Assembly: GCA_025350405.1 (NCBI GenBank)
Contig: JANXXX010000056.1
Span: 2,103 to 66,102, forward strand
Direction of reading: 5' to 3'
DNA: 64,000 nt
DNA from: Gallionella sp.
Lineage (GTDB): Bacteria > Pseudomonadota > Gammaproteobacteria > Burkholderiales > Gallionellaceae
In this document: positions 995-52,819 of the stretch, in pieces
Position numbering within the stretch: position 1 is the first letter of the stretch
Layout: each line of letters begins with the position of its first letter
The notes under the pieces: generated by a model
Database searches by the model: none
What the model was told of the DNA's origin: nothing
The model's input: the letters and a program-made list of their open reading frames with translations, nothing else
Position numbers and translations under genes: made by a program

Positions 995-1056
995 TTGACC
1001 AAGCGGTATTTTTTAAATATAGTGGGATCTAGTGGTAAAAAGTGGGTAAAAGTGGG
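995..1056 (+). promoter_or_regulatory. dcw promoter with four phased MraZ-type operator boxes
   Basis: TTGACC (995-1000), 17 nt, TATAGT (1018-1023). AGTGGG/AGTGGT/AGTGGG/AGTGGG start at 1021, 1031, 1041 and 1051, exactly 10 bp apart and directly upstream of mraZ. Confidence 0.7.
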
Positions 1057-1065
1057 GGTTAAGGG

Positions 1066-1650: not shown

Positions 1651-1652
1651 TT

Positions 1653-2588: not shown

Positions 2589-2610
2589 TAGTGGCTTGGG
2601 CTGAGTGCGC

Positions 2611-7587: not shown

Positions 7588-7589
7588 CG

Positions 7590-14730: not shown

Positions 14731-14793
14731 ACACATAACCAGCGACTTGGCTGAAGTTTGTTGGCGGCCTAGTCGAATGGCTAGTGGTTGCAT

Positions 14794-14853
14794 CAGAGAA
14801 CACAGAGATCACAGAGTGTACGGAGGTTTTCTCTGTGGGCTCTGTGATTTCTG
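14794..14853. repeat. palindromic CACAGAGNN-repeat element, copy A
   Basis: Left arm CAGAGAACACAGAGATCACAGAG, a 14-nt loop, and right arm CTCTGTGGGCTCTGTGATTTCTG. Same family as 26553-26633. It sits inside the dcw operon between murB and ddl. Confidence 0.8.
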
Positions 14854-14883
14854 CGGCGGGTTTAATTTTTTGAGACAGAGGAT

Positions 14884-15795
14884 ATGAAGAATTTCGGCAA
14901 AGTCGCGGTGTTGTTTGGCGGTAAATCCGCCGAGCGCGAGGTGTCGCTGAAAAGCGGTGCGGCGGTATTGGCGGCGTTGCTGCGCAGCGGTGTGGAAGCA
15001 CATCCATTCGATCCTGCCGTGCAGAATTTGCAGGCGCTGGCTGACGATGGTTTCGACCGCGCCTTCATTGCTCTGCATGGACGTTACGGCGAAGACGGCA
15101 CGGTGCAGGGTGCGCTGGAATTGTTGGGGATACCGTATACCGGCAGTGGCGTGATGGCGTCCGCACTCGGCATGGACAAGTGGCGCACCAAGCTGGTGTG
15201 GCAGGCGGCCGGGTTACCGATACCTGACTATGCGCTGCTCGATGAGCACAGCGATTGGAATATGGTTGCGCAAAAACTGGGTATGCCGTTGTTTGTAAAA
15301 CCGGCCAACGAAGGCTCCAGTGTCGGCATCACTAAAGTGAAAGTATCCGGCGAATTGCCCGCCGCATACCGCGCAGCCGTCAAGTACGACAAGCTGGTGC
15401 TGGCGGAAAGTTACATCGGTGGCGGGGAATATACCGTGGCGATCTTGGGCGAGCAGGCGTTGCCGGTGATCAAGATCGAACCGGCCAATGAGTTCTATGA
15501 CTACGAGGCGAAATACTTGCGCAACGACACCCGCTATCTGTGCCCGAGCGATCTGAGCGACGAACAGGAAGTCGAGATGAAGCATCTGGCCAAACAAGCG
15601 TTTGCGCTGATCGGCGGGCAGGGTTGGGGGCGTGTGGATTTTTTGAAAGACAACGCGGGCAAGCCGTATCTGCTCGAAGTGAATACCTCGCCGGGCATGA
15701 CCGATCACAGCCTGGTGCCGATGGCGGCACGTCAGGCGGGAATGAGTTTCGAACAATTGGTGCTGAACGTGCTGGAGTTGGCACATGTGGGATAA
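14884..15795 (+). CDS. ddl: D-alanine--D-alanine ligase
   Basis: 303 aa ATP-grasp protein ([25 protein letters not shown]). Confidence 0.95.
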
Positions 15796-16507
15796 CGCGC
15801 CACTGCTGCGAAGTATCGCTAACGCGCTGTTCGTGTTCAGTGTGTGCACGGTGCTGTACGGCGCGGCCTATTACGTGACACATCTGCCGGGATGGTTTCC
15901 ATTGCAGAGCGTGCACTTGAGCGCCGCCCCGCAGCGGGTTGAAGCAGTGAAGGTATTGCAGGTTGTGCGCAACGAAGTGCAGGGCAATTTTTTTACCGTG
16001 GATATCGAACGCGTGAGGAAATCATTGGAGAAACTGCCCTGGGTGCGCAACGTCAGCATACATCGCGAATTTCCGCACGGTTTGGCGGTAAGCCTGGAAG
16101 AGCATCAGGTGCTGGCACGCTGGAACGATGGCGCATTGGTGAATCGGCAGGGCGAAGTTTTCTGGGCTGTGAACGGACAAGCGTTGCCGGGCTTTATCGG
16201 ACAAGACGGAACAGCGGCTGAAGTCACACAGCAGTACGTGCAATTCAGCCAGCAACTTGCCGCGCTGGATTTGCAGGTATCCCAGATTTCCATGTCGCCG
16301 CGCCATGCCTGGCAACTGCGTTTGAGCAACGGCATGGTGCTGGAACTGGGGCGCGAGGAGATGCAGCTACGCTTGGCGAGATTCGTGGATGTATATCCCT
16401 ACAGCCTGGCGGCGATGCAAGATAAGGTGAAATATGTGGACTTGCGCTACCGCAATGGATTTGCGGTGGGCGGGCTGGTTCAAAGCGGGTTGGCTAAACG
16501 AGGTTGA
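15785..16507 (+). CDS. ftsQ: cell division protein FtsQ
   Basis: 240 aa, one TM segment followed by a POTRA-like region, located between ddl and ftsA. Confidence 0.9.
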
Positions 16508-16529
16508 ACGCGGCAGTGGAGAACAAGTG

Positions 16530-17765
16530 ATGAGCAGAACCAAGGAAACCAAGAACCTGATAGTCGGATTGGACATCGGCACGTCCAAGATCGTGGTCAT
16601 CGTCAGTGAAGTCAAGGCGGACGGCATGCTGGAAGTGATCGGCATGGGCATGCACCAATCTTCGGGGATGAAAAAGGGCATGGTGGTCAACATCGAAGCC
16701 ACCGTGGGCGCGATTCAGCGTGCGCTGGAGGAAGCCGAGTTGATGGCCGATTGCAAGATCACCGCGGTCTATACCGGCATCGCCGGCAGCCATATCCGCA
16801 GCATTAATTCGCGCGGCATGGTGAAGATCAAGGAGAAAGAAGTCGTTGCCGCCGACATCGAGCGCGTGATCGAGACGGCCAGTTCGATCAGCCTGCCCGG
16901 CGACCAGCAGATCTTGCACATCCTCGAACAGGAATTCAGCATCGATGGACAGGACGGCATCAAAAAGCCGCTGGGCATGAGCGGGATGCGTCTGGATGTC
17001 GAGGTGCACATCATCAGCGGTGCGGTATCTGCGGTGCAGAACATCATGAAGTGCATCCATCGCTGCGGTCTGGAAGTCAACGAATTGATCCTGCAGCCGC
17101 TGGCATCGAGCAAGGCCGTGCTTGCCGACGATGAGAAGGAGCTGGGCGTGTGCCTGGTGGACATCGGTGGTGGCACCACCGACATCGCGGTGTTTACCGG
17201 TGGCGCGATCCGCCATACTGCGGTGATACCGATCGCCGGCGACCAGATCACCAATGACATCGCGATGGCGTTGCGCACCCCGACCCAGGATGCCGAAGAC
17301 ATCAAGATCCAGCATGGCTGCGCGCTGCGCCAACTGGCCGACGGCGGCGTGATCGAAGTGCCAGGCGTGGGCGAGCGCGGGCCGCGCACGCTGTCCAGCC
17401 AAACCCTGGCGGAAGTGATCGAACCGCGCGTCGAGGAATTGTATTCGCTGGTGCAGCAGGAGCTGCGCCGCAGCGGCTTCGAGGAGTTGCTGTCATCGGG
17501 CATCGTGATCACCGGCGGCAGCAGCGCCATGCAAGGCATGGTCGAACTGGGTGAGGAGATATTCCATCTGCCGGTGCGCTTGGGTATTCCGAAATATATC
17601 GGCGGCTTATCCGATGTGGTGAAGACTCCGCGCATGGCGACCGGCGTGGGGCTGCTGTTGTATGGGCTGGAACATCATCAACGCAATATTGAAAGGCGTA
17701 TGGAATCGAATTCATTGGGCGACGTGCTGGGAAGGATGAAGACTTGGTTGCAGGGAAATTTTTAG
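16530..17765 (+). CDS. ftsA: cell division protein FtsA
   Basis: Actin-like ATPase starting MSRTKETKNLIVGLDIGTSK at ATG 16530. The track ORF from 16434 overlaps ftsQ. Confidence 0.95.
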   Translation: MSRTKETKNLIVGLDIGTSKIVVIVSEVKADGMLEVIGMGMHQSSGMKKGMVVNIEATVGAIQRALEEAELMADCKITAVYTGIAGSHIRSINSRGMVKIKEKEVVAADIERVIETASSISLPGDQQILHILEQEFSIDGQDGIKKPLGMSGMRLDVEVHIISGAVSAVQNIMKCIHRCGLEVNELILQPLASSKAVLADDEKELGVCLVDIGGGTTDIAVFTGGAIRHTAVIPIAGDQITNDIAMALRTPTQDAEDIKIQHGCALRQLADGGVIEVPGVGERGPRTLSSQTLAEVIEPRVEELYSLVQQELRRSGFEELLSSGIVITGGSSAMQGMVELGEEIFHLPVRLGIPKYIGGLSDVVKTPRMATGVGLLLYGLEHHQRNIERRMESNSLGDVLGRMKTWLQGNF

Positions 17766-17828
17766 CGGTTTTTATTGGTTCAGGTACGACAGGGTTGATT
17801 TTTTTGTAATTACTTTAAGGAGATGACG

Positions 17829-18995
17829 ATGTTTGAAATCATGGAAACACAAACTCAGGATGCAGTGATCAAGGTAATCGGTGTGGGCGGCTGCGGCGGT
17901 AACGCCGTGGACCATATGATCGAGCAAGGCGTGCAGGGAGTCGAATTCATTGTCATCAACACCGACGCGCAAGCACTCAAGCGCAGCAAGGCGCGCACCC
18001 AGTTGCAGATCGGTGTGAACATCACCAAAGGCTTGGGTGCGGGTGCCAAACCTGCGGTAGGCCAGGCGGCGGCAGAAGAAGACCGGAGTCGCATCAAGGA
18101 GATGCTGACTGGGGCACACATGGTGTTTATCACTGCCGGTATGGGTGGGGGCACCGGAACGGGTGCAGCACCCGTCGTCGCGCAAATCGCCAAGGAGATG
18201 GACATCCTGACCGTGGCGGTAGTGACCAAGCCGTTCGCTTATGAGGGCAACCGGATGCGTTTTGCCAAAGACGGTATCGAGGTACTGGCAAAATATGTCG
18301 ATTCGCTGATCATCGTGCCGAATTCCAAGTTGATGGAAGTGCTGGGCAAGGACGTCACCGTGCCGGAAGCGTTCAAGGCAGCCAACGGCGTGCTGCAGGG
18401 TGCGGTAGCGGGTATTGCCGAGGTCATCAATGTGCCCGGCTTGATCAACGTGGACTTCGCCGACGTGCGTACCGTGATGTCGGAGAACGGCATGGCGATG
18501 ATGGGTTCGGCAATAGCATCAGGGCAGGATCGGGCGCGGGTCGCGGCTGAGCGCGCGATAGCCAGCCCGCTGCTGGAAGATGTGGATATGTCCGGTGCAC
18601 GTGGCGTGCTGGTGAACATCACTTCGAGCAACAGCCTGAAGCTCAAGGAAATCGACGACGTGATGGAGTGCGTCCAGTTTGCCGCCGAAGAAGCAACCGT
18701 GATCGTCGGCTCGGTGTTCGACGAAACGATGGGTGACGAAATGCGCGTAACGGTCGTGGCCACGGGCCTGGGCGCACCACAGGCGCGCAAGCAAGCCAAG
18801 CCGGAAATCATCTATAACAATCAGGATTACCAGCGCACCGGTACGAACGATGAGCCGATGGCCAACGTGAATTACGGCGAGCTGGAAACACCAACCATCA
18901 TGAGGAGCGGGCGCAGGGCTGCGGTGGATGCGATGGAAAAATCCGGCGTCGACACTTACGACATCCCGTCCTTCCTGCGTAAACAGGCGGACTGA
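17829..18995 (+). CDS. ftsZ: cell division GTPase FtsZ
   Basis: Carries the GGGTGTGA tubulin signature. AAGGAG (17817-17822) is correctly spaced for ATG 17829 and directly abuts ATG 17823. Confidence 0.95.
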   Translation: MFEIMETQTQDAVIKVIGVGGCGGNAVDHMIEQGVQGVEFIVINTDAQALKRSKARTQLQIGVNITKGLGAGAKPAVGQAAAEEDRSRIKEMLTGAHMVFITAGMGGGTGTGAAPVVAQIAKEMDILTVAVVTKPFAYEGNRMRFAKDGIEVLAKYVDSLIIVPNSKLMEVLGKDVTVPEAFKAANGVLQGAVAGIAEVINVPGLINVDFADVRTVMSENGMAMMGSAIASGQDRARVAAERAIASPLLEDVDMSGARGVLVNITSSNSLKLKEIDDVMECVQFAAEEATVIVGSVFDETMGDEMRVTVVATGLGAPQARKQAKPEIIYNNQDYQRTGTNDEPMANVNYGELETPTIMRSGRRAAVDAMEKSGVDTYDIPSFLRKQAD

Positions 18996-19093
18996 AAATC
19001 GAAAATTTGCAAGGATAAGGAAAATCCGGCCTTGCAGCCGGGAAAGCAAGCTGTGGTAATATTAAACATATGATTCCGGTAAGCAAAGCGGTG

Positions 19094-20005
19094 ATGGTCA
19101 AGCAGCGCACCTTGAAAAATTCCGTCAGTGTGACGGGAGTCGGCTTGCACAGCGGCGAAAAAGTCACGCTCGGTTTACGTCCGGCACCGGTCAATACCGG
19201 CGTCGTGTTTCGCCGCGTGGATGTCAAGCCGGTTGAGGAAATTTGTGCGCGCGCCGATCGGGTGCATGACACACGCTTGTCAACCTGCATGGAACAAGGC
19301 GGTGTGCGTGTCGCCACCATCGAGCATCTGATGTCGGCATTGGCCGGATTGGGCGTGGACAACATCTATGTCGATCTGGACAGCGCGGAAGTGCCGATTA
19401 TGGATGGCAGCGCGGGCACGTTCGTGTTCCTGTTGCAATCGGCGGGTATCGTTGAGCAGTCAGCCGCAAAAAAATTCATACGCATCAAAAAGACCGTGGA
19501 GGTCAAGCAAGGCGATAAGTGGGTGCGCTTTGAGCCTCACTCTGGTTACAAATTAACGTTCACGATCAATTTCGCTCACCCGGTGTTTGCCAATGCCAAG
19601 CAACACGTCACGGTCGATCTGGGCGAGGAGTCCTATGTGCGCGACATCAGCAGGGCGCGCACCTTTGGTTTTATGCAGGATGTCGAGAACATGCGCGCGC
19701 AAGGTTTGGCATTGGGCGGCAGCCTGGACAACGCCATCGTGATGGATGATTACCGTGTGCTGAATGCGGACGGATTGCGTTTCGAGGACGAGTTCGTCAA
19801 GCACAAAGTGCTTGATGCGATTGGCGACCTCTACCTGCTGGGGCATCCGCTGATCGGCGCATTTTCCGGCCACAAATCCGGCCATGCCTTGAATAACGCC
19901 CTGTTGCGCGAGTTGCTTGCCGATGAAGACGCTTGGGAATTCGTCACGTTCAATAGCGTGGAAGAGGCGCCGGCATTTCTCCGGCTGCAATTGCAGGCGG
20001 CTTGA
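19094..20005 (+). CDS. lpxC: UDP-3-O-acyl-GlcNAc deacetylase LpxC
   Basis: [21 protein letters not shown] matches the canonical LpxC N-terminus. The track start at 19070 adds 8 residues. Confidence 0.93.
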
Positions 20006-20029
20006 TCCGGGTATGAACACGGCGGGTTT

Positions 20030-20230
20030 GTGCTGATCCTGCGTTTGTTTATCATGCTGGTGGGATTGCTGCTGGTGTTAAGCGGCGGGATGTATATTTT
20101 TACGCGTAACCGCCGCTATCTCGAATTTGCACGGCAAACGCTGCGTTTCACTGTGCTGTCGCTGTTGGTGTTCGCGCTGCTGTTTTTGCTGGAGCGCTAT
20201 GTGTTGGTCGGCTGGCTGGCAATTCTTTAA
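20030..20230 (+). CDS. small two-TM membrane protein, unknown function
   Basis: 66 aa with two hydrophobic helices. GTG start 25 nt after lpxC. No recognisable family. Confidence 0.45.
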   Translation: MLILRLFIMLVGLLLVLSGGMYIFTRNRRYLEFARQTLRFTVLSLLVFALLFLLERYVLVGWLAIL

Positions 20231-20239
20231 GCCGGGTGT

Positions 20240-20390
20240 TGAAAAACTATTGCGCGCTCGACATCACTGCGTTGCCAAAGGCTCAAAATGCGGGGTTGCG
20301 TAGCGCTAAGCTGTGTGTAAACTCCGCTTTTCGCGCTTTCGCGCCTTGTTATGTTTTTTGCTCGCTACGATTTTCAATACCCTGTTAGGG
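20240..20390 (-). repeat. about 140-nt intergenic repeat, copy 2 (inverted relative to 1513-1650)
   Basis: The reverse complement shares GAAAATCGTAGCGAGC, ATTTTGAGCC and GTCGAGCGCGCAATAGTTTTTCAAC blocks with 1513-1650. Confidence 0.6.
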
Positions 20391-20395
20391 GTTGC

Positions 20396-20827
20396 CTAGC
20401 TTTTTGTCCGAACCATTTTTTCCAGTGCAAGCCGGAGCGGTGAGTTGTCATTCAGGCTAAGGCTGAGTTTATCCAGTGCGCTTTGTGCCGTTTTGCTCAG
20501 TTTGTGGGGGGGCGGTTTAGGTTGCAGGCGATCGAAGGAAACTTGCACCTTGACGCGAATTCCGCTAACCTCACAGCCCCTGTCCTGCATCATTACGGCC
20601 AGCTCGGGTGCAAGTTGGCGTAATTTCGCGGCAACAGTGGCATTGGCAACGGCGATGCTGAGCGTGCCGAGTTGCAAGCCTAATACCTGCACTTGACTGG
20701 ATTGCGCAAGATGGGGCGGCGCGACGCTGATAAAATGACGCTGCAAGGCCGACAAAGCTTGGGCTTTGGCCAGCAAGGGACTTAGCTCCTGATTGCCATT
20801 GAGCAATGTTTTCAGATGTTGAGCCAC
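20396..20827 (-). CDS. DUF721 (DciA-like) protein
   Basis: 143 aa. The pattern HFISVAPPHL...LGTLSIAVANATVAAKLRQLAPEL is typical of DUF721, and the position between lpxC and secA is the usual betaproteobacterial one. Confidence 0.7.
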   Translation of the reverse strand: MAQHLKTLLNGNQELSPLLAKAQALSALQRHFISVAPPHLAQSSQVQVLGLQLGTLSIAVANATVAAKLRQLAPELAVMMQDRGCEVSGIRVKVQVSFDRLQPKPPPHKLSKTAQSALDKLSLSLNDNSPLRLALEKMVRTKS

Positions 20828-20858
20828 AGATTCTCGATTACTTTAGGAAGGAGGAGGC

Positions 20859-21779
20859 ATGAATATTATTCTAGTTTCCAACCGCTTGGCAAAAACTCGC
20901 ACTTATACGCTGAGTGGCTGGCAAATGGCATTTTTGCTGCTGTTGCTGTCCGGCCTGATGCTGGGTGCGGCTTTAACCCTGCAATATGCACTGGTGCGTT
21001 TTGCTCCAGAAGGCTTGAGCGATGAGATACGCGCCTTGTTATCCGAAGTGCAGAACGATGAACAGCAAAAGCAGAAGTTCTACCTGCATAGCAGTCTCGA
21101 TGCCATGGCGGTAAGGGTCGGGCAGATGCAGGCGCAAGTACAGCGCCTGGATGCGCTGGGAGCGCGCCTGGCCAAGCTGACTGGAATGAAACCGGAAGAG
21201 TTTCAGTTTTCCCAACCGCCCGCACAGGGGGGGCCGCTGGTGATATTCCCTGAGCAAAAGATGTCGGAAAATGGCTTGGTTCAGCAATTGGAAAGATTGA
21301 GCCATGTGGTCAATGATCGCAGCGATAAGTTGCTGGCCCTGGAAACCATGCTGTTGCAGAACCAGTTGAGCCGCAAATTGCTGCCGTCCATACCGCCCGT
21401 CAACAAGGGGTTTTATTCCTCGAATTTTGGTTGGCGTATAGATCCCTTCACTGGCGCAAATGCGATGCACGAAGGGGTGGATTTTGTGGCAGATGTCGGA
21501 ACGCCGATTTATGCTTCGGCCGGCGGAGTGGTTGCCTATGCAAGCATGCATCCCCAGTATGGTAATATGGTAGAGATTGATCACGGCAAGGACATTGTCA
21601 CCCGTTACGGGCATGCTTCAAAATTGTTCGTAAAGGTCGGTCAGGTGGTGCGGCGCGGGGAAAAGATCGCCGAGGTGGGCAGCACCGGACGTTCTACCGG
21701 CAACCATTTGCACTTCGAAGTTCGTTACAAGGGTAGTGCTCAGAATCCCGTGCGCTTTTTAGAAAAAGCCGCCAGTTAA
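20859..21779 (+). CDS. M23 family metallopeptidase
   Basis: 306 aa with an N-terminal TM segment, a coiled coil, and HEGVDF...GNHLHFEV LytM-type zinc motifs. Confidence 0.9.
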   Translation: MNIILVSNRLAKTRTYTLSGWQMAFLLLLLSGLMLGAALTLQYALVRFAPEGLSDEIRALLSEVQNDEQQKQKFYLHSSLDAMAVRVGQMQAQVQRLDALGARLAKLTGMKPEEFQFSQPPAQGGPLVIFPEQKMSENGLVQQLERLSHVVNDRSDKLLALETMLLQNQLSRKLLPSIPPVNKGFYSSNFGWRIDPFTGANAMHEGVDFVADVGTPIYASAGGVVAYASMHPQYGNMVEIDHGKDIVTRYGHASKLFVKVGQVVRRGEKIAEVGSTGRSTGNHLHFEVRYKGSAQNPVRFLEKAAS

Positions 21780-21794
21780 CAGAGATGGTTTATT

Positions 21795-21835
21795 GGTGAG
21801 GGTGGGGTGCAGGTAGCCTCACCCTTTGTTATTTG
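21795..21835 (+). terminator. putative intrinsic terminator after the M23 peptidase gene
   Basis: GGTGAGG..CCTCACC stem followed by CTTTGTTATTTG. Confidence 0.45.
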
Positions 21836-22014
21836 TAGGGGACCCCTAAAAATCCGGATTTCATCCCAACTGCCGAGTTGCGGAAAAAATTTCTTGCTGC
21901 ATATCATTCATACGCAGCGCTGCGAAATTTTCCCGCGCCTTGGGTTTTGGCGAACCCCGAATATTTAGAGTCCCCTGTAGTCGAACAATTTATTATTTTG
22001 TGGTTTGGTAAAAT

Positions 22015-24759
22015 ATGATTTCCAGTGTGCTGAAAAGTATCTTCGGTAGCCGTAATGATCGCTTGCTCAAGCAATATCGCGCTACTGCCCAAACCATCAA
22101 TAAGCTGGAAGCCGAAATCGCCAAGTTAAGCGATGAGGCATTACGCCAGAAAACCGATAGCTTCAAGCAGCGTTTTGCGCAGGGTGAATCACTCGATGTG
22201 CTGTTGCCGGAAGCGTTTGCCGTGGTGCGTGAGGCGAGTACCCGCGCGTTGGGGATGCGTCACTACGACGAACAGCTGATCGGCGGGATGGTGTTGCATT
22301 ATGGCAAGATTGCCGAAATGCGCACCGGCGAAGGCAAAACCCTGATGGCCACGCTGCCGGTTTATCTGAATGCGATCTCCGCCAAGGGCGTGCATGTTGT
22401 GACGGTGAACGATTATCTGGCTGCCCGCGATGCCGAGTGGATGGGCAAGCTGTATCGCTTCCTGGGATTGTCGGTGGGCGTGATCCTGTCGCAAATGCCG
22501 TCAAGTGACAAACAGGCTGCTTATGCCGCCGACGTTACCTACGGCACCAACAATGAATTCGGCTTCGATTACCTGCGCGATAATATGGCCACGCAGGCCA
22601 GCGAGCGCTATCAACGCAGCCTCAACTTTGCCATCGTGGACGAGGTGGACTCGATCCTGATCGACGAGGCGCGCACCCCGCTGATCATTTCCGGCCAAGC
22701 CGAAGATAACGTGGATGTTTATGTGCGCATCAATCAACTGGTGCCGCAGCTGGTGCGCCAGGCGACAGTGGATCAGCCCAAGGAAGGTGAGCCTGAACCA
22801 CCGGGCGACTTCAGCGTGGATGAGAAGAATAATCAGATACTGCTGAGCGAGTCCGGTCACGAACACGCCGAAAACATCCTCACCCAGGCCGGACTGCTGC
22901 CGGTGGGCGGCAGTTTGTATGATCCCGCCAACATCACCCTGATCCATCATCTGTATGCCGCATTGCGCGCGCACAACCTGTATCACCGCGATCAGCAATA
23001 TGTGGTGCAGGATGGCGAAGTGGTGATCGTGGATGAATTCACCGGCCGGCTGATGGCCGGGCGGCGCTGGTCGGATGGATTGCATCAGGCGGTGGAAGCA
23101 AAAGAAGGCGTGAGCATCCAGAAGGAGAATCAGACGCTGGCCTCGATCACCTTCCAGAATTATTTCCGCATGTACAACAAGCTGGCCGGGATGACCGGCA
23201 CGGCGGATACCGAGGCCTATGAGTTCCAGCAGATCTACAATCTGGAAACCGTGATCATCCCGCCGCATCGTCCGACCATCCGCAAGGACATGATGGACAA
23301 GGTGTATCTCACCACGAAAGAAAAATACAACGCCGTAATCGTAGACATCAAGGATTGCTTCGAGCGCGGGCAACCGGTGCTGGTGGGCACGACTTCGATC
23401 GAGAATTCCGAGTTGTTATCCAAATATCTGGAACGCGACAAGTTGCCGCACCAGGTGTTGAATGCCAAACAACATGCGCGCGAAGCGGAAATCATCGCGC
23501 AGGCCGGGCGGCCGAAGATGGTGACCATTGCCACCAATATGGCGGGTCGCGGCACGGACATTGTACTGGGTGGCAACGTCGAAAAGCAGATCGATCTGGT
23601 CAATGCAGATGTCAGCCTGTCGGCAGCTGCCAAAGAGCAACGCATCGCCCAGTTAAGAACCGAGTGGCAGCAACTGCACCAGCAGGTTCTGGACAGCGGC
23701 GGGTTGCATATCATCGGTACCGAGCGTCACGAATCGCGCCGCGTGGACAACCAGTTGCGCGGCCGTTCCGGCCGTCAGGGCGACCCGGGCTCGAGCCGCT
23801 TCTATCTCTCGCTGCAAGACCCGCTGTTGCGCATTTTCGCCTCGGACCGGATCACGGCGATCATGAATAAATTCAAGCTGCCGGAAGGCGAGGCGATCGA
23901 ACATAGCTGGGTGACGCGCGCGATCGAGAATGCGCAGCGCAAGGTGGAGGCGCGCAACTTCGACATGCGCAAACAGATTCTTGAGTATGACGATGTCGCC
24001 AACGATCAACGCAAGGTGATCTATCAGCAACGCAGCGAGTTGCTGGAAAGCGCGGATATCACAGAAACCATTCAGGCGATGCGCGAAGACGTGCTGGAAA
24101 ATACCATCAGCCAGTACATCCCGCCGCACTCCATGGAAGAACAATGGGATGTGCCCGCGCTGGAAAAATACCTGGCCGCCGAGTTGCGTCTGGACTTGCC
24201 GCTGGTGCAATGGCTGGAAGAGGATAAGCAGTTGAATGAAGCTGGGCTGCGTACGCGCATCAAGGACCATGCCCAGCAGCAATACCAGGCGAAGGTCGAT
24301 GCGGTGGGCGCGGAAGTCGTGCACCATTATGAACGTGCGCTGATGTTGCAAAGTCTGGACGTGCATTGGCGCGAGCACCTGGCAGCATTGGATCATCTCC
24401 GCCAAGGCATCCATTTGCGCGGCTATGCGCAAAAGAATCCGAAGCAGGAATACAAGCGCGAGGCCTTCGAGCTGTTTGCCGCGATGCTCGAAGCGATCAA
24501 ACTCGAGGTGACGCAAGTCCTGATGACCGTGCAAGTGCGCAGTGAAGAGGATGTCGAGGCGGTGGAAGCGGCTCCCGCGCCGGGAAATGTCCAGTATCAC
24601 CATGCGGATTACGATGAGGCATTGGCCTCAAGCGGGGATCCGTCAACCGATGAAGAGCATATGCCGTTCGTGCGTGATGAACAGAAGGTGGGACGAAACG
24701 ACCCGTGCCCGTGCGGGTCGGGCAAGAAATACAAGCAGTGCCATGGCAGGTTGAGTTAA
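22015..24759 (+). CDS. secA: preprotein translocase ATPase SecA
   Basis: 914 aa with the MRTGEGKTL Walker [20 protein letters not shown], and a C-terminal zinc finger [14 protein letters not shown]. Confidence 0.97.
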
Positions 24760-24777: not shown

Positions 24778-25263
24778 ATGTCATTAGTGATGGATACGTT
24801 ACGCATTTCAACGATTACCGAAGAGTTGAGTGATGCAGAAGTGGACGTTATCAAAGGACTATTCGAGGTTCAGGACTACAAATCCGGCCAAATCATCGTC
24901 CAGCCGGGAGACAAGCAAACTGATAACTTGTACATCTTGGCGCATGGCGATATCGAAGTGAAAATCAAAAGCAGCGGCGAAGAATCCATCATTCATGTGC
25001 TTAAACCCGGCGACTTGGCCGGCATCATCACCTTCGTCGGCGGTGCAGCCTCAGACATAAGCGCGACGCTTTACGCGGTCGGCAAAACCAAGGTGTTGTG
25101 CCTGAAAAGAGCCGACTTCGAAAAATTGATCAACTCCCATCCGATGATCGTCTACAAGGTGATGCGCGGCGTGGTGCGCAACGTGCATGGCATCGTGCGG
25201 CGCGTGAACAGCCAATCCGAAGAGCTGAGCAATTACATCTACCGTACCCACGGCCGTTATTAA
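24778..25263 (+). CDS. small cyclic-nucleotide-binding-domain protein with a conserved NYIYxxxGRY C-terminus
   Basis: 161 aa with a cNMP-binding beta-roll pattern (GQIIVQPGDKQTDNLYILAHGDIEV...LKPGDLAGIITF). GAAGGAG RBS. Sits 19 nt after secA and 10 nt before argJ. Confidence 0.8.
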   Translation: MSLVMDTLRISTITEELSDAEVDVIKGLFEVQDYKSGQIIVQPGDKQTDNLYILAHGDIEVKIKSSGEESIIHVLKPGDLAGIITFVGGAASDISATLYAVGKTKVLCLKRADFEKLINSHPMIVYKVMRGVVRNVHGIVRRVNSQSEELSNYIYRTHGRY

Positions 25264-25273: not shown

Positions 25274-26518
25274 ATGCCAGTCAATCTGACCCCGCCCGTC
25301 GCGGAGCTACTGTTGCCCGTTGCGGGCGTTTCTTTGGGCATCGCCGAAGCGAATATCAAAAAGCCCAACCGCAAAGACCTGCTGGTGATCCAATTGTGCG
25401 AAGGCGCGCGGGTCGCCGGTGTGTTCACCAAGAACCGATTCTGCGCCGCGCCGGTGATCGTCGCGCGCGAGCACCTTGCCCAAGCAGCGGTTATAGGCTC
25501 GGGCGGCATACGCGCACTCGTGGTCAACACCGGCAATGCCAATGCCGGTACCGGCGAACAGGGGATGCAGGACGCGCGCACCACCGGCACGGCGCTGGCC
25601 GGCTTGCTGGGTTGCAAAGCCAATCAGATATTGCCGTTTTCCACCGGCGTGATCATGGAGCCTTTGCCTGTCGCGAAAATAGCCGCAGGCTTGCCCGGTG
25701 CGGTAGCGAACATGCGTGCGGATAACTGGTTCGATGCCGCGCAAGCGATCATGACCACCGACATCGTCGCCAAGGCGATCTCCAAACAAGTGACGATAGA
25801 TGGCGCGACCATCACCATCACCGGCATCGCCAAAGGCTCTGGCATGATCCACCCGAACATGGCGACCATGCTGGGCTACATCGCCACCGATGTGGCGATC
25901 GCGCAACCGCTGCTGCAAGCGATGGTCAGCGAGGCCGCCAACCGTTCGTTCAACTGCATCACCGTGGACGGCGACACCTCCACCAACGACGCGCTGATGC
26001 TGATCGCCACCGGAAAATCTGCTTTGCCCGAAGTGAAAGACGGCGACAGCAAATCCGCCAAGGCATTGCAAGCCGCCATCAGCGAAGTCGCGATCTATCT
26101 GGCGCAAGCCATCGTGCGCGACGGCGAAGGCGCGACCAAATTCATCACCGTGCAAATCGAAAGCGGCAAGAGCGAAGCCGAGTGCAAACAGATCGGCTAT
26201 GCCATCGCGCATTCGCCGCTGGTCAAGACCGCGTTCTTCGCCTCCGATCCCAACCTGGGACGTATCCTTGCCGCAATCGGCTACGCGGGTATAGACGACC
26301 TGGATGTGGCCGCACTCAAGCTGTATCTGGATGATGTATTGGTGGCAGAGAATGGAGGACGCGCAACGAGTTACCGTGAAGAAGACGGCCAGCGCGTGAT
26401 GCAGCAAAGCGACATCACGATACGCGTGGTGCTGAATCGCGGTGCGGCGAAGGCTATGTTGTGGACGTGCGACTTCTCATACGATTACGTGAAAATTAAT
26501 GCAAGCTACAGAAGTTGA
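25274..26518 (+). CDS. argJ: bifunctional glutamate N-acetyltransferase / amino-acid acetyltransferase ArgJ
   Basis: 414 aa with the autoprocessing region [14 protein letters not shown] and the DGDTSTND motif. Confidence 0.95.
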
Positions 26519-47551: not shown

Positions 47552-48847
47552 TTATTTGAAATCCCGATGCAACGTCAGCGAAAAATCGGTTTGGTCATAT
47601 TGATTAACGATGATATTGGATTGATTTTGTATCAGACTGATTTGCGGACGCAGAATCCAGTTGGGCGCGTAACGATATGTTAATCCGATTGCGAGATCAG
47701 CTTGATGGTCATCTCGCATAACTAAAAAGGCACCGTTGATCCGGTCATATTTGCCCCGCTGCACGCCGCCAGAAGCAAACAAATCCAGTTTTTCTCCTAA
47801 TGATACTTGCCCGGACAGACGCACACCTTGAATGCTTTTGCTGCCATCGGTGCGCAGATTGGTATCGTGTTCATTGCCGCCAAAGAAGCTGCCGAAAACA
47901 GTAGAACGTCCATCGGCAAAAATATGCATCCAGCCCAATCCGGAAATCGTCTGATTGAAATTGTTGGATACCAACGTCGGGTCGGGATAGCGGTAGAGAA
48001 TATACTGGCCGAACCATACCGCCTGATTGGCCACATTAAAGGTATGCTTCCATGCTAAATTAACGCCGTTGGAATTACGGTTTACAACCCCACCCAAGTC
48101 AAATCGTCCGGCTAGCAAGCCACCCTGAATCTGTTCTGCGTTTCTGTCGAAACTCGCGCCAACCCGGCTATCCAGTGAGATGTAATCAAAATGATTGTAT
48201 TTTACATTGTTGCGGCTGTGCATATCCACGCCGGCATACAAAGACCAATCCGTGGAAATTGGATGAATAGCCTCACCACCTACAGCCAGCGCCAAATAAT
48301 TGTCGGCTGTTTTAACGTTTGCTGGGTTCAAGGTGAATTGAATATCCAGCAGAGCGGGCACGGTAATTTGGTTTTGTCCGGTGGCATTGTTGACATTGTT
48401 GTTATAACCGGCACCCGCCTCGAAATAAGCGCTTAACCGGGTCGTCGGTATATCGTCCGGGGTTTCGATTGCACTAAGGTACTGATTGATCGTGGCTAGT
48501 GCTGACGGCGGTGGATTCAATGCAAGTGCACGCGTGAATTCGGTACGGGCGTGTTCAAAATCGCCCAGAAGGTAATAGGCTCGTCCCAGGTCAAGCCGTG
48601 CCGCAGCGTGCAATGGGTTTACCGCCAATACGCGCTCCAGGATCAAGCTCGCCTTGTCCGCCTGGCCACTGTTCAGTGCCGCCACTCCCAAGAGATAGTC
48701 GAATTTCGTGTTGCCCGCTTGTTCAAACTCGTAGGGTTCAAGCAGGGCATAAGCCTCTGCCGGTTTGCCTTCCACAATCAACTTGTGAGCCAGCTCAAGG
48801 TCAGGGCTGTCGGCTCTGGCGTTGGAGGGAACAAATCCCAAGCTCAC
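47552..48847 (-). CDS. Slam/DUF560-like outer-membrane protein (periplasmic TPR plus beta-barrel), type XI secretion-like
   Basis: N-terminal TPR region (AEAYALLEP...LGRAYYLLGDFEHARTEF) followed by about 300 aa of alternating beta-strands. A signal-peptide-like sequence (IIKPAKHLFAFLLLVSLGFVPSNARA) is encoded in frame upstream of the GTG at 48847 but has no canonical start. Confidence 0.65.
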   Translation of the reverse strand: MSLGFVPSNARADSPDLELAHKLIVEGKPAEAYALLEPYEFEQAGNTKFDYLLGVAALNSGQADKASLILERVLAVNPLHAAARLDLGRAYYLLGDFEHARTEFTRALALNPPPSALATINQYLSAIETPDDIPTTRLSAYFEAGAGYNNNVNNATGQNQITVPALLDIQFTLNPANVKTADNYLALAVGGEAIHPISTDWSLYAGVDMHSRNNVKYNHFDYISLDSRVGASFDRNAEQIQGGLLAGRFDLGGVVNRNSNGVNLAWKHTFNVANQAVWFGQYILYRYPDPTLVSNNFNQTISGLGWMHIFADGRSTVFGSFFGGNEHDTNLRTDGSKSIQGVRLSGQVSLGEKLDLFASGGVQRGKYDRINGAFLVMRDDHQADLAIGLTYRYAPNWILRPQISLIQNQSNIIVNQYDQTDFSLTLHRDFK

Positions 48848-48914: not shown

Positions 48915-49020
48915 GATAATACCACTGCCCCAGCTACCGCCTATCCAGTTGTTGTGCTCATTATCGAGACAATACCGCTGCCCCGGCTACAGCCTGTCCG
49001 GTTGTCGTGCTCATTATGAA
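48915..49020. repeat. 53-bp tandem duplication spanning the 3' end of the FecR-domain gene
   Basis: 48915-48967 and 48968-49020 align with about 8 mismatches. The intact copy encodes IMSTTTGQAVAGAAVLSR-stop. The extra copy reads IMSTTTG-stop-AVAGAVVLSRP. Confidence 0.85.
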
Positions 49021-50751
49021 GGAAGAAATCAGCCCTTTACCATTCGGCCCAATCAGCATGCCCGCTGCGCTACCGCTTGCGCTTACTGTCGAGCCGCAAA
49101 CACAGGTACCGGCAAGCGGTATGCCATTCGCAAAAGTGGAAAGTGGTGCTGAACCACTAAAAATTCCATTCCAGCTTCGAGAATTGCCATCTGTCACACC
49201 GAGATTGTAGTTGGTCACAGTGGCCGTACCAAGATCGATAGTCACACTTAGACTTACGCCGCTGTTGCTGCGATTGATATTGCCTGATTCTGTTACTGAA
49301 GTAGAACCGACTATAGATGAAAATGTAGCGGAACCGCCTATGGCACTGATGGCCGCTGGCGAAGTGGCTCCTCCATTAACATAAGCAAACGGATGAAAAT
49401 CGACCGCGAGCGCATTTCCTGCGGCGTCGAAAGTGACTCCGCCCGCATAGATGCCCCATGACACGTCGACTGTATCCACATTCGCCGTCTTGTAATCGAT
49501 CAAGGTCGTTTGATGGTCAACGTAATTGAAGCCAGTGGCATCATTGGAGTAGGCGCTAGGCTCATAATGTTCCACGAGCAGCTTTTCTCCGGCGTTCCCA
49601 ACCTTGGCGCTCCCGACACTCCGCAAACCCAAGTGGGCACCAACGACCGCACTTCCCGACACAGCCGGTGATGCATCCGTCTCCAAAGTGCTAAGATCCA
49701 CTGAGCTATTGTCTATGAGGTCAGTCTGGGTAAGTTTGTTTTGATCTGTCTTCCCTGCGGAGGTAGAAGATTCACTTGTTGTTTTCGAATCCACCACCGC
49801 ATTTCCTGGCCCAGCAGGCAAGGCGATTGTCTCCAACGAGCTGCTATCCCCGCTGCTGTTAGCCAAGTGCTCGGTCTTGTCGGGATTGCGCGGTATCGAG
49901 TCTGACCTGGAATCACTCGAGCCGGTCACCCCTTCCTTGTCATGGAGGAGTTTGTTCGCGTCGCCGTGGTTGCCTTTGAGTTCTTTTGAATTGGCTTTTG
50001 GATCGCCAAATATCGGCAATATTTTATCCATGATAATTGGGCTAGTACCGCTGAGCGCCGCGAAGCCGGTTTGATTCGGCTTGATCAGCAACTTATCCTG
50101 CCCGCTTTGCAGTATGGTTGCACCGGAAATTACGTGGTTATAGGTTCCCGGCTCGACCACGGACGTCTGTCCTGGTGGAGCTATGGCTACAAATACGGTT
50201 TCATGGTCTGTACCGCGTATTCCGACCGTGGCATTGGGCGTGCGGATGCTGTAATTTTCCTTGTGCAGATGACCGATATTGCCAGTGACGGCACGGAATC
50301 CGCCGGCTAACAGTGTTAAAGCGATATGTTCGTTCCCGTCCTGTTTGCCGTTGTAAGCGAAAGATTCGATTACTAGCTGGCTTTCCGGGCGTAGCACAAT
50401 CGTTCCGCCATCTTCCATGCGTAACTGCAACGTTGCACCTTTGCCGGATTTCAGCGTATCGCCGACCTGCACGGCCCCACCTTTAGTGAGCGACCGGACC
50501 TGTCCCAGATTTTGCGCTTGGACTTGGCCGATGATAAACAGCACCTTACCGGCAAGCGTTGGCATGGCGGAATCGTCGTTCGGACGCAAGCCAGTGCCAC
50601 CGATGCCACCGTGCATGGCCGGTGTTCCGGTTCCGCCGATGCCGCCCTCTTTTAAGGAGTCACTAGCGGCGAGCGCATTTCCGGCGATAAGCCCGCCCAG
50701 AAATAACGCCGCGATTATTAACAGTCTATTTCTCAAGAGTGTCATCGCCAT
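48961..50751 (-). CDS. secreted FecR-domain protein with Ser/Thr-rich linker and TbpB-like C-terminal beta-barrel (candidate Slam cargo)
   Basis: - Signal peptide MTLLRNRLLIIAALFLGGLIAGNALA.
- GIGGTG repeats.
- FecR-like segment VGDTLKSGKGATLQLRMEDGGTIVLRPESQLVI...IRTPNATVGIRGTDH.
- C-terminus with the G.A.F...VSLSVTIDLGTATV...GMLIGPNGKGLISSF....GQAVAGAAVLSR pattern.
- The start is ambiguous (50763, 50751 or 50745). Confidence 0.7.
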   Translation of the reverse strand: MAMTLLRNRLLIIAALFLGGLIAGNALAASDSLKEGGIGGTGTPAMHGGIGGTGLRPNDDSAMPTLAGKVLFIIGQVQAQNLGQVRSLTKGGAVQVGDTLKSGKGATLQLRMEDGGTIVLRPESQLVIESFAYNGKQDGNEHIALTLLAGGFRAVTGNIGHLHKENYSIRTPNATVGIRGTDHETVFVAIAPPGQTSVVEPGTYNHVISGATILQSGQDKLLIKPNQTGFAALSGTSPIIMDKILPIFGDPKANSKELKGNHGDANKLLHDKEGVTGSSDSRSDSIPRNPDKTEHLANSSGDSSSLETIALPAGPGNAVVDSKTTSESSTSAGKTDQNKLTQTDLIDNSSVDLSTLETDASPAVSGSAVVGAHLGLRSVGSAKVGNAGEKLLVEHYEPSAYSNDATGFNYVDHQTTLIDYKTANVDTVDVSWGIYAGGVTFDAAGNALAVDFHPFAYVNGGATSPAAISAIGGSATFSSIVGSTSVTESGNINRSNSGVSLSVTIDLGTATVTNYNLGVTDGNSRSWNGIFSGSAPLSTFANGIPLAGTCVCGSTVSASGSAAGMLIGPNGKGLISSFIMSTTTGQAVAGAAVLSR

Positions 50752-51577
50752 GATCCACCTCACTGAAATTGTAAATGCCGAAATTTGTCCGGTAGACAGC
50801 TTCGGATTTTCCTGCGTCCTGTTTTTGCAACTCTATCGCGCGACGGTTCACCGTGTGCAACGCGCGCATTCCGGCTGTTTTGGCAACGCGTTCATACTCC
50901 TTGACCGACTCTGCTGTGAGATTGTCGTAATACACGCATCGTTCAAGGAGGGGCGGTGTAACACCGACTAGATTATGTACTGTGGCGGCAAGGTGGTCGT
51001 GGATATTTTGCCCAAAATAAAACGTTTTTTCCTCAAGCCCTTGAGGGGAGACAAAGGCGTCGGCAGTTAGATGCACATTGTCCTGTTCGTCCAGCGTAGC
51101 GATTCCCTGCCGTAACCATTCGTCCAGTACAACGCGAGCGCGAAAATCCTTGCTTACCGAACGCACCAGCGCTTCAAAAGAATGATCGCCGCCTTTGCTG
51201 GCTAATCGCGGCAACGGCAGCGGTACGCCATGTTCATCGAGATATTCAGCCCGTCCGCTCCACATCGCCAGTAACTGCGCACTCATGGAAGCCTGCAGGG
51301 AGAGGCTGCTTACAGCCAGTGATTCATTGCGCAAACGCTTGACGTCGCGTCTGTGCACACCGGTCAGCAGGCTGATGCGGCTGTCGGTTTGAGCCTTGTT
51401 ATCAAGCCTGAACTCTTCTTCTGCAATCTGGATGTAAGTTGATTTAACCAAATCGCAAAATGTCTGGAATCGGATACCGTGGGAGAGTAATAAACGAATC
51501 AGCGGCCGTAAAACCCGCCGCAGTGCAGCCACGAGTGGTGTGGGCAATTCACCGGTAACTTTCTCAAGGTTATTCAT
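50726..51577 (-). CDS. cytoplasmic HTH-containing protein, candidate regulator (possibly DUF6502-like)
   Basis: 283 aa with no TM segment and the helix-turn-helix-like segment TDSRISLLTGVHRRDVKRLRN. It overlaps the start of the downstream FecR-domain gene. Confidence 0.6.
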   Translation of the reverse strand: MNNLEKVTGELPTPLVAALRRVLRPLIRLLLSHGIRFQTFCDLVKSTYIQIAEEEFRLDNKAQTDSRISLLTGVHRRDVKRLRNESLAVSSLSLQASMSAQLLAMWSGRAEYLDEHGVPLPLPRLASKGGDHSFEALVRSVSKDFRARVVLDEWLRQGIATLDEQDNVHLTADAFVSPQGLEEKTFYFGQNIHDHLAATVHNLVGVTPPLLERCVYYDNLTAESVKEYERVAKTAGMRALHTVNRRAIELQKQDAGKSEAVYRTNFGIYNFSEVDHGDDTLEK

Positions 51578-51630
51578 ATATGCAATTCCCTAACAAAATA
51601 TCATTAAAGATACCTTACCACAAAAAACAC

Positions 51631-51692
51631 TTGACGTGTGTAAATATTACACGTAATATGCATCAACTGTGTGTTATTTGCACACGTATAAT
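51631..51692 (+). promoter_or_regulatory. tandem promoter/operator modules in the divergent intergenic region
   Basis: TTGACG (51631-36), 17 nt, TAATAT (51654-59), with the palindrome GTGTAA-ATA-TTACAC (51638-52) in the spacer. A second module has GTGTG-N7-CACAC (51669-85) directly before TATAAT (51687-92). Confidence 0.6.
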
Positions 51693-51723: not shown

Positions 51724-51879
51724 ATGAAAGATTTATGCATCGCTACGGTTTTTATATTAAGTGCGATATTCGCTGTTACGGCAATAAGTTCAGCTGCTAG
51801 CGCATTCGCTAATGCCCCGGTTGTTTCTAAAACAGGGCCGCAAAATTCTGTTGCAAGCCGCCATACAAAATATATTTGA
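51724..51879 (+). CDS. Sec-signal prepeptide (51 aa, predicted 22-aa mature peptide)
   Basis: AGGAGG RBS 6-7 nt upstream. MKDLCIATVFILSAIFAVTAISSAASAFA followed by NAPVVSKTGPQNSVASRHTKYI. Confidence 0.6.
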   Translation: MKDLCIATVFILSAIFAVTAISSAASAFANAPVVSKTGPQNSVASRHTKYI

Positions 51880-51898
51880 GAAATGAAAGGAGAATGAA

Positions 51899-52093
51899 AT
51901 GTCCTTAATGATTGATACGCTGAACTCAACACCGACTGCCGAAGAGTCGAGTAATTCAGACAAGCTGAAAGTGCAAAAAAGCATCGGGGAATCAACTAGC
52001 AAAATACTTAAACCGAACGGTTTGACTGAGATATCAATTTTTGATTATGCGGAACTCAGGAATTATATCTACGGCGTCAACGGACGGTACTAA
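51899..52093 (+). CDS. 64-aa minimised paralogue of the cNMP-binding protein at 24778-25263
   Basis: AAGGAG RBS. It shares the N-terminus (MSLMIDTL), a middle segment (ILKPNGLTEISIF) and the C-terminus (ELRNYIYGVNGRY) with the 161-aa protein. Confidence 0.7.
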   Translation: MSLMIDTLNSTPTAEESSNSDKLKVQKSIGESTSKILKPNGLTEISIFDYAELRNYIYGVNGRY

Positions 52094-52150: not shown

Positions 52151-52276
52151 ATGAACAACAAATGCAACGAAATATCTATTAACAACACAAAACAAAAAGA
52201 TGGCCAGTTTCATATTGCCCTTGCTTGGCTTGCTGCCTTGTCGGTGTCGGTAGCTGCGTGGACGTGTCTTTCTTGA
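52151..52276 (+). CDS. 41-aa single-TM microprotein (below the ORF-track cutoff)
   Basis: GAAGGAG RBS 8 nt upstream of ATG 52151. MNNKCNEISINNTKQKDGQFHIALAWLAALSVSVAAWTCLS, stop TGA at 52274-76. Confidence 0.5.
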   Translation: MNNKCNEISINNTKQKDGQFHIALAWLAALSVSVAAWTCLS

Positions 52277-52369: not shown

Positions 52370-52819
52370 ATGAAAAATGTAAACAAAATGTTTTTTGTAG
52401 TTGCAAGTACCGGGATTTTATCGATCATGTCTTTTGCTGCAATTGCAGATTCGTCTGCTCATATCACTTTGGAAAAAATGATTCAAATAAATACTGAAAA
52501 ACAACTTGCAGCAGAAGGAAATAAATATGCTCAATTAGTTTTACTTGCGGGAAGCAGGAAAGATGAGCTGGTAACAAAAAAGAATGAAGCCGCTAGCGCG
52601 TATAAAAAATGGCGCGATTTAAAATTCGCCGCAGTATCTCACTATCCGAATTACAACGATTTTACGGATGTTAGAGCAGCTGCGAAAACATATTCGCAGG
52701 CTAATAAAGCTTTTGTCGATTTACAAAAGAATATCCTTGCACAAAAGGCGGCTCCGCTAGATCCGGTAGCGATAAATGCGCTTATTGTCACCTCACCGAC
52801 AGCAGTTGGAACGAAATAA
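52370..52819 (+). CDS. secreted helical protein, unknown function
   Basis: GAAGGAG RBS and signal peptide MKNVNKMFFVVASTGILSIMSFAAIA. Lys/Ala-rich helical sequence. Confidence 0.7.
   Translation: MKNVNKMFFVVASTGILSIMSFAAIADSSAHITLEKMIQINTEKQLAAEGNKYAQLVLLAGSRKDELVTKKNEAASAYKKWRDLKFAAVSHYPNYNDFTDVRAAAKTYSQANKAFVDLQKNILAQKAAPLDPVAINALIVTSPTAVGTK

Follow-up and report, generated by a model that had tools for sequence, protein, structure and literature searches.

The locus described here raises the question of what a bacterial protein can still do after its sensor domain has been removed and its C-terminal end has been kept. The window, by which we mean the whole analysed stretch of 64,000 nucleotides (nt) from Gallionella sp. 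(assembly GCA_025350405.1, contig JANXXX010000056.1, positions 2,103 to 66,102 of the forward strand), contains an open reading frame (ORF) of 64 amino acids (aa) at positions 51899..52093 (+ strand, stop codon included), and its product is MSLMIDTLNSTPTAEESSNSDKLKVQKSIGESTSKILKPNGLTEISIFDYAELRNYIYGVNGRY. On the basis of the ORF list, the homologues and a series of intermediates, the ORF was assigned as a reduced paralogue in a family of proteins with a domain like those that bind cyclic nucleotide monophosphates (cNMP). A full-length paralogue of 161 aa, which carries the C-terminal tail ELSNYIYRTHGRY, is encoded at 24778..25263 (+ strand), starting 18 nt after secA (a SecA-sized ORF, 22015..24759), and an ArgJ-sized ORF (25274..26518) starts 10 nt after it. 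In the following, the lineage of this secA-argJ gene is called A-type, and the paralogous lineage to which the 64-aa protein belongs is called B-type. The comparison given below indicates that the constraint in this family can shift from a folded sensor domain onto a linear peptide of 13 residues.

The original prediction had described the 64-aa protein as a minimised paralogue of the secA-argJ protein from which about 100 residues of the beta-roll are absent, and the sequence items that it quoted for this relationship are all present in the DNA. In BLASTP, the two proteins align at the termini only, with 9 of 13 residues identical at the C-terminus (E 1e-4) and 9 of 21 at the N-terminus (E 8e-4), and a middle segment, HVLKPGDLAGIITF in the short and KILKPNGLTEISIF in the 161-aa protein, is identical at 7 of 14 positions. 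In the global alignment, the short protein corresponds to residues 1-21, 60-87 and 147-161 of the long copy, and the absent residues amount to 97 in two blocks of 38 (long-copy residues 22-59) and 59 (88-146). The N-side junction lies between D21 and K22 (51959..51964, + strand), and the C-side junction, at which the phosphate-binding cassette, beta7-8 and helices B and C have been taken out, lies between D49 and Y50 (52043..52048, + strand). The likeness of the two ribosome-binding sites, which had also been quoted, is real; the Shine-Dalgarno sequence of the short gene is AAAGGAGA (51886..51893, + strand), with a distance of 6 nt from GGAG to ATG. However, the same kind of site, AAGGAGA followed by 5-6 nt, is found in all 18 of the A- and B-type copies examined, so that the likeness is mostly that of a canonical strong site carried by all members and adds little to the argument. 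Its reading as a sign of a recent DNA copy was therefore rejected.

A search of the short ORF against 5.8 billion proteins gave three relatives of 102-111 aa, in which the N-terminal half of the domain is intact up to LKPxxLxGISTFD and is then followed by the identical tail AELRNYIYGVNGRY. A profile of the short forms, searched against 1.84 billion cluster representatives, gave 31 matches, with E values from 7e-39 to 3e-27 for full-length cNMP-domain proteins. These matches include full-length proteins of 153-172 aa with the short-type tail (P0125, which ends in QLRNYIYGVNGRY, P0126, P0128 and P0134), further reduced forms of 101, 80, 77, 65 and 64 aa, and distant full-length relatives without the tail (P0142, P0143, P0147, P0151 and P0154). 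The last profile search enlarged both groups, with full-length B-type proteins of 167 aa and with reduced forms between 97 and 102 aa. By pattern scanning, two 64-aa copies were found among species-representative genomes, both in metagenome-assembled genomes (Gallionella sp. and an uncultured betaproteobacterium), and scans that included the metagenomes of the Joint Genome Institute gave four further copies, two of 64 aa and two of the B-type with 161 aa; in the two pattern scans, the matches confirmed as relatives were members of this family only. Other copies come from metagenome and read-archive assemblies, and the carriers of short forms seen so far are uncultured. In total, about 200 full-length tail-bearing members were collected, among about 700 relatives found in the Gallionellaceae and Nitrosomonadales.

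Because graded intermediates and profile matches connect the short to the full-length proteins, their homology is beyond doubt, and the 64-aa form can be traced to a cNMP-domain protein. The non-redundant set of reduced forms contains 21 proteins, of 64 (seven), 65, 77, 80 (two), 97, 98, 101, 102 (six) and 110 aa, and the 64-aa form itself occurs in at least six divergent lineages. Thus, the conservation of the short ORF extends beyond this genome, and the possibility that the similarity is confined to one strain, which had been named as a reason to abandon the idea, can be set aside. Two of the reduced proteins, P0132 (110 aa) and P0135 (80 aa), are A-like, have internal deletions elsewhere and are known as single metagenome proteins; they may be assembly artefacts.

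The part of the original prediction that placed the origin of the short gene in the secA-argJ gene did not stand. The reduced forms and the full-length B-type proteins have derived characters in common that are not found in the A-type, namely NS at positions 9-10, KVKVQSSVGEST, GISTFD and a tail of the form R...G-V-N-G-R-Y, and the full-length B-type proteins P0155 and P0125 carry a GVNGRY-type tail like that of the 64-aa protein. These characters indicate that the 64-aa gene descends from the B-type paralogous lineage and not from the secA-argJ gene itself, which is then a paralogue and not the direct ancestor.

The deletion boundaries give the order of the losses. On the C-side, the segment NGAAS...SMNFQ of a P0155-like ancestor has been excised, and since every B-type reduced form shows the same two boundaries, this deletion is attributed to one ancestral event. 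No such uniformity is seen on the N-side. The 64-aa clade is without the 38 residues after position 21, and the boundaries in the window are identical to those in five other aligned 64-aa forms, including those of the loci L007 and L008; in P0141 (80 aa), comparison with the closely related P0130 (101 aa) shows that a different N-side block is gone, and in P0127 (77 aa), yet another. The differences between lineages imply that the further shrinkage took place at least three times. Read from the sequences, the B-type sensor domain was dismantled stepwise, with 64 aa as the most reduced state. In a separate variant, P0137 (74 aa), the N-terminal 55 residues of a B-type protein are joined to the membrane segment at the C-terminus of the 41-aa protein encoded downstream, and the tail is gone, which reflects either a deletion across both genes or an assembly artefact.

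The part that is retained in every step is the tail. In the window it is ELRNYIYGVNGRY, residues 52-64 (52052..52090, + strand), and its motif E-L-x-N-Y-I-Y-x-x-x-G-R-Y-COOH defines the family, forming the C-terminal end of 220 of the 243 collected members. Eight of its 13 positions are near-invariant: L(-12), N(-10), Y(-9), I(-8), Y(-7), G(-3), R(-2) and Y(-1). Other positions are specific to the lineage, with Ser in A and Arg in B at -11 and with R-T-H in A and G-V-N in B at -6 to -4, and Glu(-13) and Arg(-2) are variable in the full-length B-type proteins and invariant in the reduced forms. The pairwise identity of the tail and of the rest of the protein was 0.87 and 0.79 in the A-type, 0.79 and 0.60 in the full-length B-type, and 0.92 and 0.43 in the reduced forms. 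Therefore, where the domain is lost, the body relaxes and the tail tightens to become the most constrained part of the protein.

The selection on the coding sequence was determined by the Nei-Gojobori method as omega, the ratio of nonsynonymous to synonymous substitution (dN/dS), among the short copies. Omega is 0-0.07 in the tail, at dS from 0.23 to saturation, in comparison with 0.2-0.55 in the middle region and 0.19-0.50 over the whole gene; for the gene in the window against the other short copies, the whole-gene value is 0.19-0.36. Across four short-copy lineages, 14 tail codons show no amino-acid change, and synonymous differences are found in eight of them. This agrees with the earlier observation that the peptide is kept while the codons differ. 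At the 16 loci for which DNA was available, all four codons occur at both Leu(-12) and Gly(-3). Because the fourfold-degenerate codons of the tail use all four bases, it is the peptide that is under constraint, rather than the DNA or RNA; for this reason, and because an Rfam match and a conserved structure were both lacking, conservation at the nucleic-acid level was rejected as an explanation for the tail region. The claim that the tail is a selected functional module is thus borne out by its near-invariance in the 21 reduced and about 200 full-length proteins, its low omega and its free synonymous sites, and the C-terminal logo over the collected family members shows it conserved in the orthologues.

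These values also bear on the possibility that the short gene is a decaying partial duplicate without a function of its own. The body of the reduced forms does evolve fast (43% identity, omega up to 0.55), the deletions recur, and the fusion variant P0137 has lost the tail, all of which speak for a pseudogene remnant. However, none of the 21 reduced forms has a broken reading frame in spite of dS reaching saturation, omega is near zero in the tail, the Shine-Dalgarno sequence and the promoter are conserved, and the 64-aa form persists in its divergent lineages. Decay was rejected on the dN/dS values and the intact frames, and we regard it as extremely unlikely. The same features show that the 64-aa ORF is a real, expressed-looking gene under purifying selection.

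The structural consequence of the reduction was considered by means of AlphaFold2 models. The A-type protein matches the Pfam family cNMP_binding at residues 32-121 (E 2.7e-17), and its model shows a confident cNMP-type fold (predicted local distance difference test, pLDDT, 79; predicted template modelling score, pTM, 0.76), which matches the sensor domains of CRP, GlxR, HcpR and MloK1 and the domains of PKA. In this model, helix C (122-144) is followed by a helix at 148-156 that is modelled with low confidence (pLDDT 54-64) and by a disordered end, the final four residues being below 50, which indicates that the tail is not confidently docked within the molecule. For the 64-aa form, the model based on an alignment of 15 sequences (pLDDT 56, pTM 0.20) is disordered except for a helix at residues 50-58, YAELRNYIY. 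The predicted anatomy is therefore that of a flexible carrier with one amphipathic helix, of which L53, Y56 and I57 form one face, and a G-R-Y end. The scores against PF00027, the cNMP_binding domain family, follow the same course: 63 bits for the A-type and 32.3 bits for the full-length B-type protein P0125, at a cut-off of 27.5, and no match for the 64-aa form and the 102-aa protein P0003 even at E<=10. The 64-aa form lacks beta1-3 and the residues from the cassette to helix C and has no predicted beta-roll, so that it does not have the structure by which this family is defined, an eight-stranded beta-roll with a phosphate-binding cassette and helices B and C.

It is doubtful that even the full-length A-type protein binds cAMP or cGMP in the canonical manner. 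In comparison with the regulatory subunit of PKA, GELAL is replaced by GIITF and R-A-A-T by I-S-A-T (residues 78-97), so that the Glu and the Arg of the cassette, which contact the nucleotide, are both Ile; the cassette loop 84-91 is modelled at pLDDT below 50. An annotation of the A-type as a cAMP-binding protein is, to judge from these replacements, probably wrong as to the ligand. In the short form, the cassette is gone altogether, and neither protein has the residues expected of a functional cNMP sensor.

In cNMP-type domains such as those of PKA, Epac and CRP, the segment that follows helix C is a mobile lid or hinge region. In the full-length members of the present family, the tail follows the C-helix in this lid region and stands in the place that is taken in CRP/FNR regulators by the DNA-binding domain. 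The tail is then probably the output element of the family, a short amphipathic helix with a G-R-Y end that would dock on a conserved putative partner, and its exposure would be gated by the sensor domain. The reduced forms would be disordered carriers that show the same tail without a gate, with an activity set not by a ligand but by a conserved operator-bearing promoter, and they would either compete with the A-type for the target of the tail or mimic a sensor in the 'on' state. We infer from these considerations that the 64-aa protein acts in trans as a tail-presenting microprotein, a competitor or constitutive mimic of the full-length sensors, and we give this proposal somewhat less than an even chance. 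The idea of a decoy or competitor, which was already put forward in the original prediction, fits the predicted anatomy of a disordered body with one tail helix.

Several points weigh against this proposal. Because helix C is deleted, the classical mechanism of a microprotein that acts through the dimer interface is excluded, and competition could take place only through the tail. The tail does not significantly resemble any motif already known; in the comparison with PDB, the tail of the short form gave only a weak likeness to a dockerin helix (E 0.16), which is partly a product of the deletion junction and was treated as chance, and the A-type tail gave nothing. The presence of an A-type together with a reduced B-type gene in one genome is established for this window only. 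Finally, in L002:1011-1346, and also in L003 and L004, the stop codon after the tail is replaced by TGG, and nine extra residues, WKFDLINAI, follow; the same sequence was obtained from three samples. Either a free C-terminal carboxylate is not strictly required, or this copy is impaired.

The disorder and the conservation of the C-terminal end could also be taken to mean that the tail is a stability or degradation tag, in which case the short protein would saturate a protease or adaptor, or would simply be short-lived. The tail does lie on a disordered end and is kept in both paralogous lineages. The C-terminal degrons that are known from bacteria are shorter than this tail and tolerate substitutions, whereas here the eight near-invariant positions hold over about 220 sequences; there is also no likeness to ssrA-like ends, and a degron leaves unexplained why the tail stays while the cargo domain goes. 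We consider such a tag improbable.

The 64-aa ORF is the second gene in an island of 1.3 kb with low GC content (35-42% as compared with about 55%), which contains four genes on the + strand, and this cassette recurs in every reduced-form locus of sufficient length. The first gene (51724..51879) encodes 51 aa with a hydrophobic or signal-like N-terminus and a His-containing C-terminal part that ends in H-x-K-[YF]-I; it is known from eight loci, with omega 0.3-0.5. The C-terminal part is His-rich in most copies (GHHNS...HHAKFI). The same gene precedes full-length B-type genes in L009, L013, L018 and L019, and in L005, L006 and L011 it abuts or overlaps the B-type start, which suggests translational coupling. 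The third gene (52151..52276, omega 0.2-0.6) encodes a 41-aa tail-anchored membrane protein with the motif DGxFHxAxAWLAALS and always lies 50-61 nt after the reduced form. Its product corresponds to the C-terminal half of a 76-aa tail-anchored protein encoded after a full-length B-type gene (L010:8592-8822, E 1e-5), so that the neighbour of the shrunken gene is itself a shortened relative. A larger tail-anchored coiled-coil relative, in the range of 75-88 aa, is also found at L008:8898-9125. The fourth gene (52370..52819, omega 0.2-0.3) encodes a helical protein of 149 aa with a signal peptide. The three genes that accompany the 64-aa ORF thus evolve as coding sequence (omega 0.2-0.6), and their products have no family match in Pfam, NCBIfam or PADLOC. 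The low GC content had suggested a defence system or mobile island, and this was rejected because PADLOC gave no match and the locus is syntenic across lineages, with no obvious recent insertion. A scan for terminator-like sites gave none within the cassette.

The regular presence of the 41-aa gene behind the reduced forms is of interest in relation to an arrest or leader peptide, the last 13-35 residues of which would act in cis in the ribosome exit tunnel, when translation is at the stop codon or close to it, and control the genes for the 41-aa and 149-aa proteins. Arrest peptides of the SecM, TnaC and SpeFL type have a variable body and an invariant C-terminal end at the stop codon, and the reduced forms resemble them in their critical, invariant last residues and variable N-terminal part. 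Such a role would account for a dispensable N-terminal body, and it would be in line with a tail that is tighter in the reduced forms than in the full-length B-type. On the other hand, RNAalifold gave no conserved structure for the spacer RNA (-0.11 kcal/mol, without covariation), which also has no rut-like element and no Rfam match, and the downstream Shine-Dalgarno sequence lies in A/T-rich sequence without a stable hairpin; no RNA switch of the kind used by arrest peptides was seen. In L013 and L019, the full-length B-type gene keeps the tail even though the next gene is convergent, so that there is nothing to regulate in cis. The A-type protein, which carries the same kind of tail, is folded and 89% conserved, and its gene keeps the secA-X-argJ position in the isolate Ferrigenium kumadai while the distance to argJ varies, from 10 nt in the window to 105 nt in that isolate. 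Moreover, the 64-aa protein has no N-terminal signal or transmembrane segment of the kind found in secretion-monitoring arrest peptides, and the L002 lineage reads through the stop codon. Taken together, a function as an arrest peptide is held to be as improbable as that of a degradation tag.

The cassette also bears on the suggestion of the original prediction that the short protein could be like the precursor of a ribosomally synthesised and post-translationally modified peptide (RiPP). In this reading, widened here to cofactor-like precursors, the tail would be the core, comparable to PqqA in its E-x3-Y or to mycofactocin MftA in its C-terminal Tyr, and the modifying enzyme would be encoded elsewhere. 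The short ORF, the conserved C-terminal core with E-L-R-N-Y and a terminal Tyr, and the small membrane and secreted proteins in the same cassette are compatible with this. However, genes for radical-SAM, YcaO or ATP-grasp enzymes, peptidases or transporters were called beside the gene in none of the 14 distinct loci, the searches of Pfam, NCBIfam and PADLOC gave nothing for the cassette, and the tail is shared with a folded protein of 161 aa whose gene lies in a housekeeping operon. The suggestion was consequently not upheld, and a precursor of this kind is very unlikely.

We return to the proposed trans-acting microprotein and the control of its expression. The cassette is preceded by a sigma-70-type promoter found in a promoter scan, TTGACG and TAATAT separated by 17 nt (51631..51659, + strand), the spacer of which contains an inverted repeat, GTGTAA-N3-TTACAC (51638..51652). 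A second conserved inverted repeat, GTGTG-N7-CACAC (51669..51685, + strand), lies just downstream of the -10 element; across the loci, it takes the form GTGTG-N5-7-CACAC at about 10 nt downstream of the -10 element, near the transcription start. The region 51620..51692, with an A-tract, the -35 and -10 elements and the two palindromes, is almost identical in six loci (the window, L007, L008, L011, L013 and L019). By its sequence, the promoter looks like a two-operator site for a regulator, and its arms resemble half-sites of the CRP/FNR type.

On the - strand, divergent from the cassette and on the other side of this promoter region, lies a gene for a DUF6502 protein (50726..51577), which is the most constant neighbour of the B-type genes. 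It is co-oriented with genes for a FecR-domain protein of 600 aa (48961..50763) and a TPR/Slam-like outer-membrane protein of 431 aa (47552..48847). The trio is also found beside 64-aa forms in L008 and L011 and beside a full-length B-type gene of 153 aa in L013, and DUF6502 genes also flank L002, L007 and L019. The FecR-domain protein (542-600 aa, with a repeated GIGGTG near the N-terminus) always adjoins the TPR/Slam-like protein (L008:3912-7018, L011:2812-5804, L013:1046-4042). Its Gly/Ala-rich C-terminal end presumably resembles those of Slam-dependent surface proteins; a comparison with PDB gave no sequence match for this end as the barrel of a Slam substrate. In the DUF6502 protein, the stretch SRISLLTGVHRRDVKRL has by eye the look of a helix-turn-helix, for which neither Pfam nor PDB gave a match, and it is given as a lead only. 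Other full-length B-type genes lie beside genes for a histidine kinase and a response regulator (L010) or for a GNAT protein (L014), and in L009:945-4382, the full-length B-type gene is followed by genes for a multihaem cytochrome (about 13 CxxCH, 347-359 aa) and an outer-membrane-type protein of 713 aa, which may form a porin-cytochrome module of an iron oxidiser.

If these neighbours are taken into account, a more specific picture can be drawn. The tail would be a ligand-gated docking peptide, not described before, and the output of a whole family of CRP/FNR-type sensors without a DNA-binding domain in iron-oxidising Betaproteobacteria, and the 64-aa protein would be a natural microprotein without the gate that antagonises or mimics these sensors, deployed through the two-operator promoter in an envelope module of the DUF6502 protein as a regulator, a FecR-like surface protein, a Slam-like translocator and small membrane or periplasmic proteins. 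Taken as a whole, this picture is possible but less likely than not.

The proposed role is similar to that of the microProteins of plants and animals, such as LITTLE ZIPPER and Id, which are small proteins that arose by duplication and truncation of a larger regulator, keep an interaction element and are thought to act post-translationally (PMC9638782). A larger related regulator is present in the same genome as the 64-aa gene, the A-type gene of the window. The most constrained part that has been retained is the tail, and the disorder and the helix propensity suggest that it could be the interaction element. In contrast, a classical microProtein has preserved a folded domain for dimerisation, by which the parent is caught in inactive heterodimers, whereas the 64-aa protein is bacterial, has its dimerisation helix deleted and consists of the 13-residue linear tail on a poorly conserved body, with an interaction that is proposed here. 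Inhibitory or dominant-negative fragments of Escherichia coli proteins, among them essential ones, provide another comparison, since a short fragment in which an interface is preserved can be a competitor of the intact protein in vivo (PMC9245647, PMC11831152); these fragments are engineered, whereas the 64-aa form is a natural gene that is fixed and under selection. In cargo-loading peptides of encapsulins and encapsulation peptides of microcompartments, the conserved part is likewise a short helix at the terminus, carried by a flexible linker, while the cargo varies, but no shell protein is encoded in any of the present loci. The best NCBIfam match, to a family 2B encapsulin, concerns only the cNMP domain inserted in that protein and lies far below the cut-off (43.8 as compared with 400 bits). 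A literature search on this family, its tail, DUF6502 and Gallionella cNMP-domain proteins found nothing.

The series from 161-172 through 102 and 80/77 to 64 aa is a rare case in which the erosion of a domain can be followed in public data. The conserved tail is a new motif, and it suggests that the real output of conserved and unstudied stand-alone CRP/FNR-like sensors is a short linear motif. The 64-aa protein, as a natural minimal carrier of the tail, is usable as a reagent for fishing out the partner. If the competitor or mimic model is true, the protein would be a clear bacterial counterpart of the eukaryotic microProteins. For annotation, the present case indicates that small ORFs that fail every domain search can be assigned by way of intermediates.

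Two observations concern the surroundings of the A-type gene. In the window, positions 1..24759 are occupied by a row of co-directional ORFs on the + strand that ends at the SecA-sized ORF. The corresponding place upstream of secA is taken in Ferrigenium kumadai by lpxC and by genes for a DciA-domain protein and an M23 peptidase.

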